From contig JBDRLS010000037.1 in the NCBI GenBank assembly GCA_043812875.1, positions 1 to 35,088 on the forward strand: 35,088 nt of DNA, read 5' to 3'. Position 1 is the first letter of the stretch; every line of letters begins with the position of its first letter. The position numbers were made by a program, and so were the translations under genes. This DNA comes from Nanobdellota archaeon (GTDB lineage Archaea > Nanobdellota > Nanobdellia > Woesearchaeales > JAHIVG01). Positions 2,942 to 29,490 of this stretch are shown piece by piece. The notes under the pieces are model-generated. The model saw only the letters and a list, made by a program, of their open reading frames with translations, searched no databases and was not told where the DNA came from.

Positions 2942-3619
2942 CTAAACGATATTCAGTTCATAAAGAAAATGAATGAATTCCCGAGCAATCCTTGCATCCT
3001 GTTTCATCAACTTACGATTGAATATCTGTCTCTTAAAAAGCCAACGGTCGAGAGGAGTGCATTCAGACCAGTGCCTTTGTATCTTATCAAGGAGTTTCCT
3101 ATTCCATTCAGATGGCTTTAAACTCCCATAATCAAATTCCACTACATAAGACTTGATATCCGGAAACACCTTCATGCCTGCCCTGACAACGGATTTGTCG
3201 GCCTCCAGAGGCATGGGATCACCATTGATTCTCTTATAAAATGGGAATTCACCCAATTGGTCATCTTCAGGATCGATCCAGGATGGTAAGGCATAGATGT
3301 CTGAGGGGCCATCACATCGCCTAAAGGAATGGGTATGCAAATCGAGGACAAGAGTTGGTTCCACTGCTGCAACGACCTGTTCAATTTCAGCAATGCTATT
3401 CGTGCAGAAAGTTGCTGACTCCAATCTGAGATTGATTGCAAGACCACTCATGCCAGGGGCGATCATCGGATAGAATAGGATATCATCATCAGGATAATGG
3501 CTGCTATAGTCATCTGCACTTTTTTTCCAGAGAACGTCCTCTCCGATATGTTGCCCTATGAACGCTAAAACGCGGTGATGCGATAATGTTGATGTCGCGA
3601 TCTGATGGGATGAATTCAT
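2942..3619 (-). CDS. Hypothetical protein, possibly an M14/succinylglutamate-desuccinylase-aspartoacylase-like zinc hydrolase
   Basis: The ORF track extends to a GTG at 3664. I prefer the ATG at 3619 (MNSSHQ...) because a TATA box tttataaatatt (3644-3655) sits about 30 nt upstream. The weak motifs GQHIGED (HxxE) and LVLDLHTHS resemble the G-x-HGNE and DLH zinc motifs. The family call is tentative. Confidence 0.4.
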   Translation of the reverse strand: MNSSHQIATSTLSHHRVLAFIGQHIGEDVLWKKSADDYSSHYPDDDILFYPMIAPGMSGLAINLRLESATFCTNSIAEIEQVVAAVEPTLVLDLHTHSFRRCDGPSDIYALPSWIDPEDDQLGEFPFYKRINGDPMPLEADKSVVRAGMKVFPDIKSYVVEFDYGSLKPSEWNRKLLDKIQRHWSECTPLDRWLFKRQIFNRKLMKQDARIAREFIHFLYELNIV

Positions 3620-3643
3620 ATATAATAGGGTAATGGAAAACGG

Positions 3644-3655
3644 TTTATAAATATT
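3644..3655 (-). promoter_or_regulatory. TATA box for the 2942..3619 gene (near-leaderless)
   Basis: The minus strand reads aatatttataaa, centred about 30 nt upstream of the ATG at 3619. The MITE target-site duplication starts 2 nt further upstream. Confidence 0.45.
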
Positions 3656-3665
3656 CCTATGCACC

Positions 3666-3786
3666 GGACGCGTAGAAAACCTGGTTCTTTTTGATTAGGG
3701 CGGTGTGCTTTTGTGATCACTCACCTTGTCATCTGCCGCTTAAACGGATCAAAAAGAATTTCACCTTATCGTTTTTCTACGCGGCC
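3666..3786. mobile_element. MITE-like element, copy A (121 bp, terminal inverted repeats, 8-bp target-site duplication)
   Basis: The ends ggacgcgtagaaaac... and ...gtttttctacgcggcc are inverted repeats. An inner arm ttctttttgat pairs with atcaaaaagaa. A perfect direct repeat tatgcacc flanks it at 3658-3665 and 3787-3794. It shows about 92% identity (111/121 by eye) to copy B at 13155-13275. Confidence 0.7.
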
Positions 3787-3905
3787 TATGCACCCGGTTT
3801 TCACTGGATATCTGCTCAGGTGATACTCAAACCGTTCTTCCAATCTTTGAGTTCAACCTGTGATGATCCTCATTCCAGGCAAGAAAAAGATGAGGAAAAA
3901 AAAGC

Positions 3906-4124
3906 CTACTTTGCCTTCTCCGCGGCCTTCCCGATCTGGATCGTCACCAGAACAGCAATGATGGTTACGACAATGGCATAGGTGAGCATGGCCGGAATGC
4001 TGTCCGCCTCACCGAAGAGCTTCTTGAAGATCGCCTGGATTGCGCCGTTCCATGCGAGGGCCGCGACAAGGCCGAAAGCTGCTATTAATAAAGCTGCAAT
4101 TTTTTCAATGACATCTTTTTTCAT
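3906..4124 (-). CDS. Small two-TM membrane protein (hypothetical)
   Basis: 72 aa with two hydrophobic helices (IAALLIAAFGLVAALAW and MLTYAIVVTIIAVLVTIQI). SD-like GGGGGTG lies 7 nt upstream, a TATA atatttataaatac further upstream, and an oligo-T run downstream (A8 on the plus strand, 3893-3900). Confidence 0.6.
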   Translation of the reverse strand: MKKDVIEKIAALLIAAFGLVAALAWNGAIQAIFKKLFGEADSIPAMLTYAIVVTIIAVLVTIQIGKAAEKAK

Positions 4125-5145: not shown

Positions 5146-5295
5146 GATATCACCTTCGTATCTATTTCATAATAGTAACTTTCATTAATATGTTTTTTGG
5201 ATATCAACAGTTGCCCACTGGACATCCTCGCGTGAGCTATTTAAAGCTGATCTGAAGACTAAGATTTCTTAGCAACAGCTCTAGGAGGACATTGA

Positions 5296-7407
5296 ATGCA
5301 CGCAACCTTAGTAGATGTCTTTCTGCACAACGGCTATAAAGTCTGGCTCAAGGCAGAGGACAACACAAACATCTTCCTCCACGACAGCTACAAGCCTGTC
5401 ATCTACGTCAGCGATATCCCCCTCGCTGCATTGAAGACCGCGCTGAGAAACCATGGCATCAGCTCTTCCATCACCACAAAGAGAACCATCATCGGAGAGA
5501 ACAAGGCTGTCCTCGGCATCAAGGTGCAGCCAGAGCGCGTCCGCGCCCTTGTCAGAGACCTCGAAAGACGCTATCCGGAGGCGAAGCTCTACCATGCTGA
5601 CCTCCAGGCGGAGCAATACTACTTGTTTGCGAAGAAGCTCACACCCCTGTGCAAGGTCGAAGTGCATGAGCACGAGGGGGAGATCGTGCACATCGAGCGC
5701 ATCGGAGGGGGGGATACGACGCTCAAAGAAACAGATCTTTCTTTCGAGACAAGCTATTCGCTGTACAAGGACTTCGATTGTGAAATGACGTCGTTGCAGA
5801 TCGATGAAGGGGTAAAGGGGGGAACAGAGAAACACATCCTAGAGCAGCTGCAAGAGCATCTCTGCCACCAAGACCCGGACATCCTTCTGCTCAGAGACAG
5901 CAATATCACGTTGCCCTATCTCTCCTACCGCGCTAAGAAACACGACATGATCTTGAAACTCTCAAGGTTCCCGCAGGATATCCTCTTCCATGAAGGCAAA
6001 AGTCACTATAGCTATGGCAAGACTGTCTACCGCCCGAGATCAGTTCTCCTGAAAGGCAGACTCAACATGGATCAGGGATCATTCCTCTACAAGGAAGCTG
6101 GCTTCGCCGGTGTTGCAGAACTCGCCTCATTATGCAAGAGCAGCATCCAACGCTTAGGGATGAGAAGCCCCGGTGCAGGCATCAGCAGCCTGCAGGCATG
6201 GCAGGCATTTCAGGACGGAATCCTCATCCCCTACAAGGAAAACCTGGTCGAGAAGTTCAAGTCTGCAAAAACACTGTTCGCTGCAGACAGAGGAGGCCTC
6301 ATCTATGAGCCTGCTGCAGGCATCCACGGCAATGTCGCAGAGATCGACTATGTCTCGATGTATCCGACGATCATGGTGGTCAACAACCTCTCCCCGGAAA
6401 CCGTACTCTGCAATTGCTGCAAAGAACACATCACTGTGCCTGAACTGAACTACAATGTTTGCCACCGCCGAGGCCTCATCCCGAAGATGCTCGGCGAGGT
6501 GCTGATCCGACGCGCGTACTACAAGAAACATCCCACGCCAGAGAACAAGGCAAAGGCCGTAGCTTTGAAATGGCTTCTGGTGACCTCGTTCGGCTACATG
6601 GGATTCCGCAAGAGCAAATTCGGCAGGATTGAGGCGCATGAAGCCATCAATGCCTTCGCCCGAGATAAGCTCCTCACTGCAATAAAGATAGCTGAAAAAG
6701 GAGGTTACAAGGTGATGCACGGCATCATCGACTCCCTTTGGATTCAGAAGCAGGGCATCCGACTGGAAAAGGTGGAAGAGTTATGTGAGCTCATAAGCAA
6801 ATATACAGGAATCGACATCGCTTTAGAGGGGATGTACCGCTGGGTCGTCTTCCTGCCATCGATCCTCGACGACCGCATCCCGGTGCCGACCAGATATTAT
6901 GGCCTCTTCCACGACGGCACCATGAAGTTGAGGGGCATCGCAATACGAAGATCAAGCGCTCCCAAGATTGTTGTCGACATGCAGCGGGAGATGCTTGACT
7001 ACCTGTCAACATGTAACACCCCGAAAGAATTCCTTGCAGAATATCGAAATGCGGTGAAGCTGATCAGAACATACGCACGGAAGCTAGATGAGGAGAACAT
7101 AGAGGATGTCATCATCCGCATCGGCATCTCGAAACTGGAGTATAAGGCGAATTGCGCACAAAAAGAGGTAGTCTCTAAACTTTTGGAAGAGGGCATCGCC
7201 TTGCATCCGGGGGTGAGCGTTGCCTATGTCATCACGCGCGGCGGCTATGCTCCCGCAGAGTTCTTCCGCGGCAGCATCAACAAGGCAAGATACCTAGAAC
7301 TTCTCGTCAGAGCAGCGTATGAGCTCTTCCAGCCCTTCCTCAGCGAGGATGATGTCTGGGAGGCCTTGCATGGCGAGAAGCAGGCAGTGTTGGAGGCATT
7401 TATATGA
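5296..7407 (+). CDS. polB: Family-B DNA polymerase with degenerate 3'-5' exonuclease motifs
   Basis: 703 aa. Motif A EIDYVSMYPTIM, motif B KWLLVTSFGYMG, motif C VMHGIIDSLW, KxY region TRYYGLFHDGTMKLRGIAIRRS, DPDILLL..LPYL (Exo II region). SD GGAGGA lies 8 nt upstream of the ATG. Confidence 0.85.
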   Translation: MHATLVDVFLHNGYKVWLKAEDNTNIFLHDSYKPVIYVSDIPLAALKTALRNHGISSSITTKRTIIGENKAVLGIKVQPERVRALVRDLERRYPEAKLYHADLQAEQYYLFAKKLTPLCKVEVHEHEGEIVHIERIGGGDTTLKETDLSFETSYSLYKDFDCEMTSLQIDEGVKGGTEKHILEQLQEHLCHQDPDILLLRDSNITLPYLSYRAKKHDMILKLSRFPQDILFHEGKSHYSYGKTVYRPRSVLLKGRLNMDQGSFLYKEAGFAGVAELASLCKSSIQRLGMRSPGAGISSLQAWQAFQDGILIPYKENLVEKFKSAKTLFAADRGGLIYEPAAGIHGNVAEIDYVSMYPTIMVVNNLSPETVLCNCCKEHITVPELNYNVCHRRGLIPKMLGEVLIRRAYYKKHPTPENKAKAVALKWLLVTSFGYMGFRKSKFGRIEAHEAINAFARDKLLTAIKIAEKGGYKVMHGIIDSLWIQKQGIRLEKVEELCELISKYTGIDIALEGMYRWVVFLPSILDDRIPVPTRYYGLFHDGTMKLRGIAIRRSSAPKIVVDMQREMLDYLSTCNTPKEFLAEYRNAVKLIRTYARKLDEENIEDVIIRIGISKLEYKANCAQKEVVSKLLEEGIALHPGVSVAYVITRGGYAPAEFFRGSINKARYLELLVRAAYELFQPFLSEDDVWEALHGEKQAVLEAFI

Positions 7408-7940
7408 TCCTCGTCAAGTCGATCATCGCTAAACCTGGGAAACGGCCAGGGTTGTCAGAGAAAAGAGTCAGAACCTATTTCATCAAGAAAGGCTGCAGAG
7501 TGTGGAGAGGCATGTTCCTCTGTTTCTTCAACAGCACGGATACGTGTTATTACAAGTGGAACTACGGCCTCTATGATGAGTTATGCCAGAAGTTTGTCGA
7601 TCAGATCGGAGTTCAGCAGTTCAAACGCCTCTGTGTCTACTGCCGCCGGAACAAGGGAGCTCCGGATTATATTATTTGGGATGGGAGGAAACTGTTTTTC
7701 GTTGAAGTCAAGCTGGAGAATGAGCAAGTCAGCGATCGGCAGCTGAAAACCATGCACTATCTCTCCCAGTTCTTATCCTGTTGCATTTACCGGGTCTTCT
7801 CTGCAACACGGCAGAGCGTCAGGAGCATCGATGTCGCGCAATACCTCAAGGATGCAGAGAAGGGAGAAGTGAGGCTTTCGGATTATATCAAAAAGCTCGA
7901 ATATAGTCCAGTATTAGTGAAAAAATGGCAAAAAGCTTAA
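7404..7940 (+). CDS. VRR-NUC domain (PD-(D/E)xK) nuclease with a Cys-rich insertion
   Basis: 178 aa. SEKRVRTYFIKKGCRVWRG ... NKGAPDYIIWDGRKLFFVEVKLENEQVSDRQLKTMHYL matches the VRR-NUC pattern (PD...E-x-K...Q). The start ATG overlaps the polB stop (ATGA, 7404-7407). Confidence 0.7.
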   Translation: MILVKSIIAKPGKRPGLSEKRVRTYFIKKGCRVWRGMFLCFFNSTDTCYYKWNYGLYDELCQKFVDQIGVQQFKRLCVYCRRNKGAPDYIIWDGRKLFFVEVKLENEQVSDRQLKTMHYLSQFLSCCIYRVFSATRQSVRSIDVAQYLKDAEKGEVRLSDYIKKLEYSPVLVKKWQKA

Positions 7941-7965
7941 GAATACACACCCATTCCCCCTTTGA

Positions 7966-8388
7966 ATGGGAGGAGGCCTTGATACACCATTACCAGAATG
8001 TCCGAACAGCGTTAGAAATCAAGTCAAGACAGCTGAAGAACTCGCCATCATGGCTGCACTCTGTCCTGATGGCTATGTCGTTGAGATGCTATCAGCATAT
8101 ACTCCGTTTTCTTTTCGCGAACAAGTACGACAGCAGTGGAAGCATGGCACTGTAATAAATGATGCAGTGCTTTCTCATGTCGGGACCTTAGTTGTGAAAG
8201 AAGTTGGTGAAGATGGCGTTAAAGGAGATTTTACTCTCGCACCTTCAGATAGGGACCTGTCTTCTTATCGAAACAAATCGCATGAAACGACCGTTGATTA
8301 TAGAACCCATAACATGATAGATTTTAATGGTAAAAAGGGATCGGGCTTAACATTTCTTGTCCACCGAAGAAAACCTTCTGTATGGTAA
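7966..8388 (+). CDS. Hypothetical protein (orphan)
   Basis: 140-aa ORF directly downstream of the VRR-NUC gene on the same strand. No recognisable motif. The start is uncertain; an alternative is Met29 at 8050. Confidence 0.4.
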   Translation: MGGGLDTPLPECPNSVRNQVKTAEELAIMAALCPDGYVVEMLSAYTPFSFREQVRQQWKHGTVINDAVLSHVGTLVVKEVGEDGVKGDFTLAPSDRDLSSYRNKSHETTVDYRTHNMIDFNGKKGSGLTFLVHRRKPSVW

Positions 8389-8390
8389 AC

Positions 8391-9122
8391 CTACCACAGA
8401 TTCATCCCTTTGATGAAGCTTGCGCACGAGATTGGCTTCTCGACGCGCTCGAAGTCGCCGCGCCGGATGGCTGAGAACAAGGATTTAAGATCCTTAATCT
8501 CGTCGTTCAGGAGGATTCCTGAACATCCCACCTGTTCCAGGAGAGTATGAGCATCCGAAGCAGCAATGCCCTTGAAGGGCAGACGTCTCACCAATGCTTT
8601 CGCAAGGTCATTCGCCTCTTTCATCCATGCGATGACGGGAAAGAGATTGATGAGATGCGCATTGAACACCTCGACTTCGTCGACCATGCCACAGAGCTCC
8701 TTGACCTTCTCCAATTCCTTGTTATTGATATACCGATATTTTGCAAATGGCAATCCTGTAACAGTTATGAATGGATGGGGAAGGATCGCTAATCCCCCCA
8801 GATCATGGATTGCATCTATTGCTTCACGCGCATCCTTAAAATCCTTGATCGGCTCCTGGCAGCCGAGCGCCAGGATATGATGGTCTGACATGATCTCCTG
8901 CGCGTGGACAATATATCCTATTGCATCTTTGTAGGTCACCTTAGCGAATAACCCCTGGTCGATCTCTTCTACACCGGGAAGCTTTTTCGCCTGGTCATAC
9001 GTATAGATCCAAGAATCAGCCCGTATTCGAGTCAATGAGGTTATCCCTCGAGAAAAGACATCGAGCAGCGCCTCTTTTGGATGCGTATTCGTCGGGTGGC
9101 AGTGAAGATCGGCAAGCTGCAT
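8391..9122 (-). CDS. PHP-domain metal-dependent phosphoesterase
   Basis: Motifs: MQLADLHCHP (HxH), SDHHILALG, LAILPHPF, GIAASDAHT. I trimmed the tracked ORF (to 9320) to the ATG at 9122. The upstream extension overlaps the pspC-like gene and looks non-coding. Confidence 0.75.
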   Translation of the reverse strand: MQLADLHCHPTNTHPKEALLDVFSRGITSLTRIRADSWIYTYDQAKKLPGVEEIDQGLFAKVTYKDAIGYIVHAQEIMSDHHILALGCQEPIKDFKDAREAIDAIHDLGGLAILPHPFITVTGLPFAKYRYINNKELEKVKELCGMVDEVEVFNAHLINLFPVIAWMKEANDLAKALVRRLPFKGIAASDAHTLLEQVGCSGILLNDEIKDLKSLFSAIRRGDFERVEKPISCASFIKGMNLW

Positions 9123-9198
9123 CACCACTTTCTTTTCTTGCTCCTTTAAGTATTTTGCCAAAAAATATTTATTTGACAATGATGCAACTCTTTTCAAT

Positions 9199-9387
9199 AT
9201 GCCAAAAAAACAACTCTTCCGGAGCACGAAGAACAGGGTCATCGCCGGCGTCTGCGGCGGCATTGGTGAATATTTCAATATCGATCCAGTCATCGTCCGA
9301 GTCGTCTGGGCCATTGCCACGATCGCAAGTTTCGGCGTCGGAATCCTTGCTTATTTCGCTGCATGGTTCATCATCCCTGAGAGATAG
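9199..9387 (+). CDS. PspC-domain membrane protein
   Basis: 62 aa. LFRSTKNRVIAGVCGGIGEYFNIDPVIVRVVWAI is the canonical PspC domain, followed by one TM helix. Confidence 0.85.
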   Translation: MPKKQLFRSTKNRVIAGVCGGIGEYFNIDPVIVRVVWAIATIASFGVGILAYFAAWFIIPER

Positions 9388-11776: not shown

Positions 11777-12571
11777 ATGATGATCATGAAAGCCCTTCTT
11801 ATCTTAAGTCTCGCATTAGTCATCTCTGCCTGCGCCCCGTCTGAGCAAGAGATCATCTCCTGCACTGTCCATGCTGATTGCGTCCCAGAGCCCGCATGCC
11901 ATCCCATGAGGTGTATCAACGCGAAATTCGTAGAGCTCTATGAGAAACCAGAGATCTGCACGATGCAGTTCGACCCCAAAGCTGCATACGACAAGATTGA
12001 TTGCCTTTGTGTTGAAAGCACATGCACAAACAAGAATCTTGAACATATTCCTGAACCTCGTGATGAGAACGGCTGTCTATTCGAGCAAGGATACTATTGG
12101 AAAGAGCAGATCAGCGCATGCGTCCTCCCTGAAGAATTCACTGATAAAGAGATTGAACTTGCACTGTTGGCGATAAAGAAACAAGGCAGTTCAGCTGGTC
12201 TTGCCGTGATTGGCATTGAAGAGGCTGATTGCGAATTCTGCTATGATGTCCTCTTTGATCTTTATGGTGAAAAGTTGAGCGTCCGTGTGGATTCTGAAAA
12301 CCTCATCTATTCCTTTGAAGGGTGCGTCGAGGCCGGCAATCCAGTCATTGAAGAGTTCCCCCGGCGATGTAAAGTATCTGAAGGGAAATACTTCCTTGAT
12401 GAGATCACAGGCAGGACACGATGCAGTCTTGCGCCTGATCCAGGTCCGTGTAAAGCAGCCATGGAAAGGTTTTATTACAATGGCCGCAGATGCACGACTT
12501 TCACCTGGGGGGGATGCGACGGCATGGTGCCTTTCGAGACTCTTGAGTCCTGCTTAGAGACCTGTGAGTGA
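11777..12571 (+). CDS. Cys-rich secreted lipoprotein with a C-terminal BPTI/Kunitz-type serine protease inhibitor domain
   Basis: 264 aa. The signal peptide has a lipobox-like LVISAC, and there are about 24 Cys. The C-terminus CSLAPDPGPCKAAMERFYYNGRRCTTFTWGGCDGMVPFETLESCLETC (nt 12422-12565) matches the six-Cys Kunitz pattern, including GPCKA, (F/Y)YYN and GGC. Confidence 0.8.
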   Translation: MMIMKALLILSLALVISACAPSEQEIISCTVHADCVPEPACHPMRCINAKFVELYEKPEICTMQFDPKAAYDKIDCLCVESTCTNKNLEHIPEPRDENGCLFEQGYYWKEQISACVLPEEFTDKEIELALLAIKKQGSSAGLAVIGIEEADCEFCYDVLFDLYGEKLSVRVDSENLIYSFEGCVEAGNPVIEEFPRRCKVSEGKYFLDEITGRTRCSLAPDPGPCKAAMERFYYNGRRCTTFTWGGCDGMVPFETLESCLETCE

Positions 12572-28767: not shown

Positions 28768-29490
28768 TCAGACGGAGCTGTGCTCTTGCCACAATGGACC
28801 TGAACGAGAGAGGAGAACACCGCATATGAGCGCGAATATGGCGGCTGCTGCAGAAGTTATCATGATTCGCTCACCCATCTGCTGGAAGAAATATTGAGGA
28901 AACAGCTGTATCATGTTGGTGTCCTGTGAAAATGCGAAGTTCCCTTGAGGAAAGAAGAGGACATGGAAGTAATAGAACGTGCTGCTGAAGTTCTCAAAGG
29001 CGACAAAGGCGATGCCTCCAAAGAGCAGCATTGCTATCGATGAGATGGTCAATGCCATGCCGAGGTATTTGAAGCCGTAGGACACCCAATATGTTTTCAT
29101 CTCCATGTAGGATAAGACAAAGAGCAGCGCGACGGCCAGGAGGAGGAACAGGATGCTTATCCGGAGAAAGTTTTTCCCGTTGAGCATATGCGCCCTCACA
29201 TCGGTGAAATGGGCAACCTCATCCTCGCCAAAAAAATCAGGGGGGGTATCGAGTGCCGCATGTGACCTCGTTCCCAAGAATGAGAGCAGTTCTGAGGTGA
29301 TGTCATTGATCGCTTGCCGATCGTATCCCTGTTCCAAGAAGGATCCATATATTCCGGATCCATAATGCCGCTCATAGACACTGGATGAAAAGATCCAGGC
29401 ATGGGCAGAGCCGAGCAATAAAACAAGGGGCAGAAAGATGGCAATGAGGACGATGGCTGGCCACAGCTTAGTCATTGTGTCCTTCCCCAT
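28768..29490 (-). CDS. Integral membrane protein, DUF1461/TIGR01906-like
   Basis: 240 aa. One N-terminal TM, a loop with FFGEDEVAHFTDVRAHM (E..H..DV motif), then three or more TM helices. The family call is tentative. Confidence 0.5.
   Translation of the reverse strand: MGKDTMTKLWPAIVLIAIFLPLVLLLGSAHAWIFSSSVYERHYGSGIYGSFLEQGYDRQAINDITSELLSFLGTRSHAALDTPPDFFGEDEVAHFTDVRAHMLNGKNFLRISILFLLLAVALLFVLSYMEMKTYWVSYGFKYLGMALTISSIAMLLFGGIAFVAFENFSSTFYYFHVLFFPQGNFAFSQDTNMIQLFPQYFFQQMGERIMITSAAAAIFALICGVLLSRSGPLWQEHSSV

Follow-up and report, generated by a model that had tools for sequence, protein, structure and literature searches.

The window analysed here, a 35,088-nucleotide piece of archaeal chromosome from a Nanobdellota archaeon (contig JBDRLS010000037.1), encodes a family-B DNA polymerase of the PolB2 (Dpo2) type whose stop codon overlaps the start codon of a gene for a VRR-NUC nuclease. 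Comparison with related genomes gives good evidence that polB2 and the VRR-NUC gene form an operon. We consider it fairly probable, at roughly 0.6, that the locus expresses a PolB2 extender polymerase together with a structure-specific VRR-NUC endonuclease, the nuclease being an addition to the PolB2 damage-tolerance operon peculiar to one clade. The polymerase part of this picture is already known; the VRR-NUC neighbour, found in one small group of uncultivated archaea, is the new part. The two genes and the signals around them are arranged as follows.

5238 to 5245, + strand: TATA-box-like element TATTTAAA, read from the sequence, about 50 nucleotides upstream of the polB2 ATG
5283 to 5288, + strand: Shine-Dalgarno (SD) sequence AGGAGG, 7 nucleotides ahead of the polB2 ATG
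5296 to 7407, + strand: polB2, a 703-amino-acid B-family DNA polymerase with a decayed exonuclease domain and an intact polymerase site
7392 to 7396, + strand: SD sequence GGAGG within the 3' end of polB2, 7 nucleotides ahead of the VRR-NUC ATG
7404 to 7940, + strand: VRR-NUC nuclease gene, 178 amino acids, its start overlapping the polB2 stop (ATGA, 7404–7407)

The TATTTAAA element is a candidate archaeal promoter. A first-pass annotation of this DNA had called four open reading frames (ORFs), at 5296–7407, 7404–7940 and 7966–8388 on the + strand and a convergent one ending at 8391, with an ATGA overlap between the first two. All four lie where it placed them, the overlap is real, and the VRR-NUC gene has its own GGAGG ribosome-binding site. 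Translational coupling of polB2 and the VRR-NUC gene is plausible.

The adjacency recurs in related genomes with overlapping frames, a point that the first-pass annotation had put forward for checking. A single-sequence word-index search with the window VRR-NUC found itself alone; homologs emerged via a three-sequence profile built from neighbours of PolB2 relatives (the window and the loci labelled L001 and L005). Searching with this profile showed the subfamily to consist of eight clusters among 5.8 billion proteins, to which a metagenome scan added a few loci. VRR-NUC adjoins polB2 in 9 of about 13 genomic instances and lies directly 3' of it in 8 of the 9, the genes overlapping by 4–86 nucleotides where the start can be placed by the conserved VRR-NUC N-terminus. 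The closest relative of the window PolB, 56% identical, is on a 111-kb contig of a metagenome-assembled genome labelled Nanoarchaeota archaeon (GCA_043806015.1; L001). There, one convergent gene separates polB2 from a VRR-NUC homolog of 45% identity, 1.2 kb downstream; farther along, the contig shares its gene order with the window (PspC, purF, purD, eIF2-gamma and S6e). For comparison, 80 species-representative PolB2 loci were collected with the family profile, and in most of them iRadA and PPB2 (Pfam DUF8156) immediately precede polB2, as in the operon already known. The arrangements found are these.

Window: polB2, VRR-NUC; 4-nucleotide overlap
L090/L091 (VRR-NUC 62% identical): polB2, VRR-NUC; 4-nucleotide overlap
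L005 (PolB2 39% identical): iRadA, PPB2, polB2, VRR-NUC; overlapping
L092/L093: iRadA, PPB2, polB2, VRR-NUC; 62-nucleotide overlap
L094 (Woesearchaeota): polB2, VRR-NUC; 62-nucleotide overlap
L099, L102 and L103: polB2, VRR-NUC
L001: polB2, one gene, then VRR-NUC
L095–097, L100, L101 and L104: VRR-NUC without polB2

In L005 (8075–8590, + strand) the database gene call (149 amino acids, P0124) is short at the N-terminus; a start at 8075 restores the conserved MIQKEIRLRQYPY... and gives an 86-nucleotide overlap with polB2.

The flanking genes differ in every locus, and the constant part is the junction from polB2 to VRR-NUC with overlapping frames. Order and overlap persist down to 28% identity between VRR-NUC proteins (range 28–62%) and about 36–39% between PolB2 proteins. 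A junction conserved amid differing flanks is good evidence for an operon. iRadA and PPB2 stand upstream in just two of the paired loci (L005 and L092). The link between polB2 and VRR-NUC is frequent, not obligatory, since some loci lack one partner. Phylogenetic placement, which the first-pass annotation had left for later, identifies the window gene as PolB2 and groups the VRR-linked PolB2 proteins in one DPANN-type clade of a neighbour-joining tree. Outside this clade, a hidden Markov model (HMM) of the subfamily found VRR-NUC in none of 80 other PolB2 loci, and a Pfam scan of 136 genes downstream of them showed no enrichment of VRR_NUC, the top families being TctA and DUF72.

No published polB2/VRR-NUC pairing was found, and no paper in the searchable literature library carries both terms. 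A 2025 study of PolB2 neighbourhoods (PMC11791011) mentions no such nuclease in the text or supplements checked; it lists Orc1/Cdc6, LexA, SRAP and DUF72 as neighbours of PolB2 operons, and its tree is limited to PolB2 proteins with iRadA and PPB2 nearby. A polinton-like-virus paper in which both PolB and VRR-NUC appear was set aside, as it describes a Bro-N–VRR-NUC fusion and no link to PolB. Genes for DNA_alkylation proteins (AlkD-like, PF08713) also occur near polB2, in L001 (6449–7147, − strand) and in L094 (7538–8227, − strand), the latter directly after VRR-NUC. In Woesearchaeota loci without an adjacent polB2, VRR-NUC is followed by genes for a 423-residue P-loop-like protein and a 751-residue Cys-rich, secreted-looking protein (L095, 7783–11707, + strand), neither of which has a Pfam match.

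The VRR-NUC protein passes the Pfam VRR_NUC model marginally (PF08774, 26.1 bits against a cutoff of 23.8); its homologs P0124 and P0126 also carry this domain, and the codon-usage score of the gene (+0.27) is like that of known genes. The site residues are E19, P87-D88, E101-x-K103 and Q113. P87, D88, E101, K103 and Q113 are invariant in eight of eight homologs and E19 in seven, the eighth being a shortened gene call. E-PD-ExK followed by a Gln ten residues past the Lys is the VRR-NUC signature (PMC4103454). The active site is intact, and nuclease activity is predicted. An AlphaFold 2 (AF2) model from the eight-sequence alignment (predicted local distance difference test, pLDDT, 78) gives the order alpha1, beta1, four helices, PD strand, ExK strand, helix, strand. 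The four helices form an insertion, in part of which pLDDT falls to 60–69.

7509 to 7652, + strand: helical insertion of the VRR-NUC protein, residues 36–83, four helices in the AF2 secondary structure, between beta1 and the PD strand (beta2); holds the non-conserved cysteines

The first-pass annotation had described this segment as a four-Cys insertion. The cysteines are indeed present in the window protein; a conserved metal site is not, for C48 occurs in the window alone, C77 in two of eight homologs and C61 and C80 in three of eight, and five of the eight have none of them. A zinc or other metal site was accordingly rejected, the insertion being modelled as four helices.

The position of the insertion bears on the kind of nuclease encoded. 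In FAN1, a two-helix insertion at the same beta1–beta2 site blocks the interface through which standalone VRR-NUC proteins, which cleave Holliday junctions, form dimers (PMC4103454). A Foldseek search with the model returned paFAN1 and hFAN1 on top (about 200 columns), then Hjc and RecU, with the standalone protein 4qbn in 50th place. The Foldseek matches to FAN1 VRR-NUC domains have a root-mean-square deviation of about 2.5 Å over about 80 columns and a template modelling (TM) score of about 0.5, and a PDB sequence search gave marginal FAN1 matches (E about 0.1). With its helical insertion at the FAN1 site, the nuclease is most likely a monomeric flap or branched-DNA endonuclease. It is also possible, with a probability we put well below even, that VRR-NUC is a conventional dimeric Holliday or four-way-junction resolvase serving recombination-dependent lesion bypass or fork restart with iRadA/PolB2. 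The Foldseek matches to Hjc and RecU, a PHROG match annotated as Holliday junction resolvase and the presence of iRadA in the same operon in two loci would all suit such an enzyme. A 48-residue helical insertion where the FAN1 insertion blocks the dimer interface, however, speaks against a dimer, as does the ranking of the structural matches, in which the top full-coverage hits are FAN1 and the standalone VRR-NUC comes 50th.

Less likely again is an adjacency devoid of function, in which a housekeeping or mobile-element-derived VRR-NUC gene was simply inherited after polB2 in one compact-genome lineage. Such an origin would account for a pairing confined to one clade, with four clade PolB2 loci lacking VRR-NUC and four VRR-NUC loci lacking polB2; viruses often carry VRR-NUC genes (PMC4103454), and there are weak PHROG matches. 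It sits poorly, however, with an order and overlap of frames kept across the divergence given above while the flanking genes are wholly different between loci, and with an internal SD sequence that has the same 7-nucleotide spacing as that of polB2. Nor are there PADLOC matches or mobile-element hallmarks nearby: PADLOC gave no defence-system match in the window, its HEase match to PolB probably reflecting an intein-containing polymerase model. We retain co-expression of an extender polymerase with a structure-specific nuclease as the preferred reading, and turn to the polymerase.

The 703-residue protein is a PolB2 (B2 group, Dpo2-type) polymerase. Pfam recognizes DNA_pol_B (PF00136, 55 bits) and finds no exo1 domain. 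Two NCBIfam models titled "type B DNA-directed DNA polymerase", 665 and 717 positions long, match strongly yet below their equivalog or subfamily cutoffs: NF004416 scores 401 bits where 516 is required, and NF004418 scores 334 bits where 692 is required. This is consistent with a divergent clade. Homologs number 2354 at E ≤ 1e-5, the full-length ones 32–41% identical save one; their hosts are numerous archaea and also bacteria, among them Thermodesulfobacteriota and Methylomirabilis. Family conservation was read from an alignment of the best 118 homologs. The polymerase motifs lie as follows.

6286 to 6291, + strand: D331-R332 (in ADRGG), ahead of motif A; the D(K/R) motif specific to PolB2, with D331 invariant in the family alignment
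6346 to 6372, + strand: motif A, DYVSMYPTI, with catalytic D351 and steric-gate Y356; aligns to KOD-type DFRSLYPSI
6568 to 6603, + strand: motif B, KWLLVTSFGYMG (K425); aligns to KILANSLYGYYG
6718 to 6735, + strand: motif C, HGIIDS; counterpart in the alignment of YSDTDG in KOD-type enzymes, with Ile for the first Asp of DxD and the second, D479, kept

D351, S354 and P357 of motif A are invariant in the 118 homologs, as are K425, L428, V429, F432, G433, Y434 and G436 of motif B and H475 and D479 of motif C. The family patterns, essentially invariant, are D-F/Y-x-S-M/L-Y/F-P, K-W-x-L-V-x-x-F-G-Y-x-G and H-G/A-x-x-D-S, and the first Asp of the canonical DxD is present in none of the 118. The spacing of D331-R332 to motif C matches that of DK253 and IID401 in Sulfolobus islandicus PolB2, whose motif C is 401-IID-403 (PMC11791011). 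The D(K/R) motif has been described and modelled to contact the N-terminal arm of PPB2 (PMC7544198, PMC11791011). An AF2 model of the window PolB2 is highly confident (pLDDT 92.7), with a Foldseek TM score of 0.76 to the 9N/KOD polymerases. Sulfolobus Dpo2 is a robust polymerase without exonuclease activity that extends mismatched and lesion-paired termini (PMC8764526). The first-pass annotation had taken motifs A and B to be intact and motif C to have lost its first Asp while keeping the second, and it had read the protein as polymerase-competent, proofreading-dead and PolB2/Dpo2-like. The alignments bear out each of these points, and the IID motif is shared with Dpo2. The polymerase site is intact and the exonuclease site decayed, and polymerase activity is predicted. 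Loss of proofreading and a one-Asp motif C are, however, family-wide and published, and not peculiar to the window gene; this part was already known.

It is very unlikely that PolB2 in this lineage serves as a structural protein without catalytic activity, leaving the nuclease as sole enzyme of the pair; a dead polymerase was reportedly the original view of the PolB2 family in 2008. The protein does depart from the family at 18 of the 129 columns conserved at ≥90% (family median 2; own-clade members 14–25), including D554S in the RRxD motif, and iRadA and PPB2 are not found in the window. Against this, every residue known to matter for catalysis (D351, Y356, K425, H475, D479 and D331-R332) is retained, most of the deviations fall in the exonuclease remnant, the AF2 model is of high confidence, and Dpo2, whose motif C likewise reads IID, is a robust polymerase.

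The exonuclease remnant was placed by profile alignment and by the AF2 strand order. At Exo II, RDSNITLPYL aligns to (N)GDNFDFAYL, the catalytic Asp being replaced by T205 as first annotated. The two other exonuclease assignments of the first-pass annotation fared less well. FAGVA, taken for Exo III, aligns to KOD FLPMEAQLSRL (residues 326–335), downstream of Exo III, and Exo III itself is deleted: when the family profile is set against P. abyssi PolB, the alignment falls into two blocks and about 45 PolB3 residues, Exo III YSMED among them, are left without a counterpart. DLSFETS, taken for Exo I, is probably one strand too far downstream. The AF2 strands E129–138, E145–152, E164–169 and E172–174, followed by a helix at 178–192, mirror the four strands before PolB3 helix A, and in the profile alignment the FDIET strand of PolB3 falls at about residues 129–131. 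Judged by the HMM alignment and the order of secondary structure, the Exo I strand is probably at about residues 129–138, with DLSFETS on the next one. Under either strand placement, DxE at Exo I is conserved in none of the family. These results agree with published descriptions of the B2/G2 group, in which Exo III is missing altogether and Exo I is not conserved (PMC7544198). Though two of its motifs were misplaced, the annotation was right that the exonuclease is dead, for a proper alignment shows no intact DxE, a Thr for the Exo II Asp and a deleted YxxxD segment. The window remnant is more degenerate than the family consensus, with G137, G175, N203 and F225 in place of family-conserved acidic residues.

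A polymerase without any Exo catalytic residues invites the idea, advanced in the first-pass annotation, of proofreading in trans by VRR-NUC or by the convergent PHP phosphoesterase described below, and some of the PHP domains of Pol III alpha and PolX do act as 3'-5' exonucleases. The idea is unsupported and the least credible of those considered: VRR-NUC has the PD-(D/E)xK fold of a structure-specific endonuclease, not a 3'-5' exonuclease, the PHP gene is on the other strand, matches the PHP_C model only and is a neighbour in no related locus, and proofreading would be counterproductive for a PolB2 that extends mismatches and lesions (PMC8764526).

With polymerase and nuclease in place as the two enzymes of the preferred reading, the remaining components are the usual PolB2 partners and the sliding clamp. 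Homologs of the window PolB2 at 33–40% identity sit in iRadA-PPB2-PolB2 operons, and both partner genes stand beside polB2 in the close relatives L005, L092 and L003. In L001, iRadA and PPB2 are found at 3389–4064, 4.4 kb upstream of polB2, in a separate cluster. The window has neither iRadA nor PPB2, although its PolB2 retains the D(K/R) motif through which PPB2 is said to be contacted; the two genes may be located in another part of the genome. At its extreme C-terminus the polymerase carries a motif shaped like a PCNA-interacting peptide (PIP) box.

7381 to 7404, + strand: C-terminal QAVLEAFI of PolB2, PIP-box-shaped, fitting Qxx[LIM]xx[FWY][FWYLIM]

The L001 ortholog ends in QARLEDWI, and PIP-shaped motifs occur in just 5 of 64 sampled PolB2 proteins, in keeping with a report that a minority of PolB2 proteins carry PIP-type motifs (PMC11791011). 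QAVLEAFI is a candidate PCNA-binding site. The VRR-NUC homologs P0124 (L005), P0126 (L094) and P0127 (L095) end in a PIP-like QEK[ILM]xxx[YW], and the window VRR-NUC ends in KKWQKA, without it.

The mechanism we propose has a parallel in eukaryotic crosslink repair, where FAN1 cooperates with the B-family extender Pol zeta. The locus would encode a PolB2 (Dpo2-type) translesion or extender polymerase without a proofreading site, together with a co-transcribed VRR-NUC that would be a clade-specific fourth component of the PolB2 operon in DPANN-type archaea (Woesearchaeota; GTDB Nanoarchaeota). Both proteins would act on the same damaged-DNA intermediates, VRR-NUC trimming or incising a structure while PolB2 extends or displaces it, in a cooperation like that of FAN1 with Pol zeta, and PolB2 could be tethered to PCNA by its own C-terminal QAVLEAFI.

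Several observations weigh against this proposal. iRadA and PPB2 (arCOG07300/DUF8156) were not found anywhere in the 35-kb window by tblastn and HMM search of all six frames. The likeness to FAN1 rests on an eight-sequence AF2 model (pLDDT 78) and a Foldseek TM score of about 0.5. The deviation of the window PolB2 at 18 of 129 conserved columns counts here as well. polB2 is absent beside four loci of the VRR-NUC subfamily (L095–097, L100, L101, L104) and VRR-NUC is absent from four PolB2 loci of the clade (L003, L006, L087, L008), and there are about 13 instances in total, several on short contigs.

A stronger form of the proposal, which we regard as speculative and doubtful, would have the DPANN PolB2 machinery rebuilt around the nuclease, with a FAN1-like monomeric VRR-NUC bound to PolB2 and/or PCNA as a stoichiometric subunit that, in genomes like the present one, partly or wholly replaces iRadA-PPB2. 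The result would be a prokaryotic counterpart of the eukaryotic incision-and-extension pathway of FAN1 and Pol zeta for crosslinks or blocked forks.

Comparison with characterized systems shows both shared and differing features. With S. islandicus and S. solfataricus Dpo2 (PMC8764526, PMC7390963, PMC11791011, PMC7544198) the window polymerase shares the B-family fold, a one-Asp motif C (IID) that keeps the conserved His, the D(K/R) motif, an unconserved Exo I and a missing Exo III, and its close relatives L005, L092 and L003 lie in operons like the Sulfolobus iRadA-PPB2-PolB2 'mutasome'. It differs in length (about 700 against about 555 residues) and in having a C-terminal PIP-shaped motif of its own, and its locus differs in lacking iRadA and PPB2 within 35 kb and in the overlapping VRR-NUC gene that follows. 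The nuclease resembles the VRR-NUC domains of human and Pseudomonas FAN1 (PDB 4ri8, 4r89, 5y7g), its best Foldseek matches, in its E-PD-ExK-Q site and helical insertion between beta1 and beta2, and the context, a B-family extender polymerase for translesion synthesis and PCNA, is also similar. However, its insertion has four helices rather than two, identity is 12–24%, and the 178-residue protein is not a FAN1 ortholog because it consists of the nuclease domain only, without UBZ, SAP or TPR domains. Like standalone psNUC, stNUC and saNUC (PDB 4qbn, 4qbo) and archaeal Hjc, it is a small single-domain PD-(D/E)xK nuclease, and it has the VRR-NUC-specific Gln. The standalone proteins, in contrast, are dimeric Holliday-junction resolvases of about 90–120 residues, without the long beta1–beta2 insertion or any link to a polymerase gene. 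The E. coli Pol V mutasome (UmuD'2C-RecA) and imuA-imuB-dnaE2 are comparable as damage-tolerance operons that join an error-prone polymerase to accessory RecA/RadA-like or regulatory subunits; they use other polymerase families and lack a VRR-NUC nuclease.

Downstream of the pair lie two further reading frames that the first-pass annotation had drawn into the module.

7966 to 8388, + strand: ORF of 140 amino acids (ORF140), of doubtful status, outside the module
8391 to 9122, − strand: convergent PHP-superfamily phosphoesterase gene, 243 amino acids from the Met at 9122, an unrelated neighbour

Both are incidental neighbours and stand outside the module. ORF140 has no Pfam, NCBIfam, PADLOC or PHROG match, no SD sequence ahead of its ATG and no counterpart in any related locus by tblastn. 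Its coding signal is weak, the codon-usage score (+0.04) being the best of its six frames and well below that of most known genes. In L090, the closest VRR-NUC locus, VRR-NUC is followed immediately by a different convergent gene. One phmmer match to ORF140 (E 1e-16) was discounted as homology: it is the sum of 10 weak matches to Ig-like repeats of a 1962-residue protein, each of about 29 bits (E 1e-4). A T-rich run (TTTTCTTTTC, 8105–8118, + strand) and an A5 run (8331–8335) lie inside ORF140. These could be oligo-T terminators for the convergent polB2–VRR-NUC and PHP transcripts, which would favour a 450-nucleotide 3' intergenic zone over a gene.

The PHP gene has the codon usage of a real gene. 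The gene product matches PHP_C (PF13263, 37.6 bits) and not Pfam PHP; with NCBIfam CehA/McbA it scores 17 bits (cutoff 80), and it has no meaningful sequence match in the PDB. The translation shows DLHCH (N-terminal, MQLADLHCH), ILPHP and SDAH motifs. Besides lying on the opposite strand, it has no homolog in any related PolB2/VRR-NUC locus by tblastn. Read from the first possible start it would span 8391–9320 (− strand, 309 amino acids) and overlap a 62-residue PspC-domain gene (9199–9387, + strand) that is conserved in L001 at 50% identity; because of this overlap the gene most likely starts at 9122.

Elsewhere the window encodes NOG1 and YchF-type GTPases, ribosomal proteins L10e and S6e, eIF2-gamma, purF/purD and tRNA-Ala. 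A 264-residue protein (11777–12571, + strand) has a C-terminal Kunitz/BPTI protease-inhibitor domain (PF00014, E 3e-11), a domain that, to our knowledge, is not expected in an archaeal genome. The product of 28768–29490 (− strand), on an apparently DPANN chromosome, is homologous to lipoprotein intramolecular transacylase Lit (PF07314, E 2e-19), an enzyme known from bacteria.

PolB2 was long written off as inactivated. It is now credited, as a damage-inducible extender polymerase, with targeted mutagenesis in archaea; the holoenzyme that it forms with iRadA, PPB2 and the clamp is known from models alone. The practical reach of the present finding is limited, with about a dozen instances, all in uncultivated archaea. 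Within that compass, the conserved overlap of polB2 with a nuclease gene in one clade points to an additional PolB2 partner, and some DPANN polB2 genes are not linked to iRadA and PPB2 and encode a PIP-like tail of their own. A VRR-NUC partner also points to the substrates of PolB2, which may be flapped or branched intermediates rather than simple gaps. In its make-up the pair mirrors eukaryotic FAN1 and Pol zeta.

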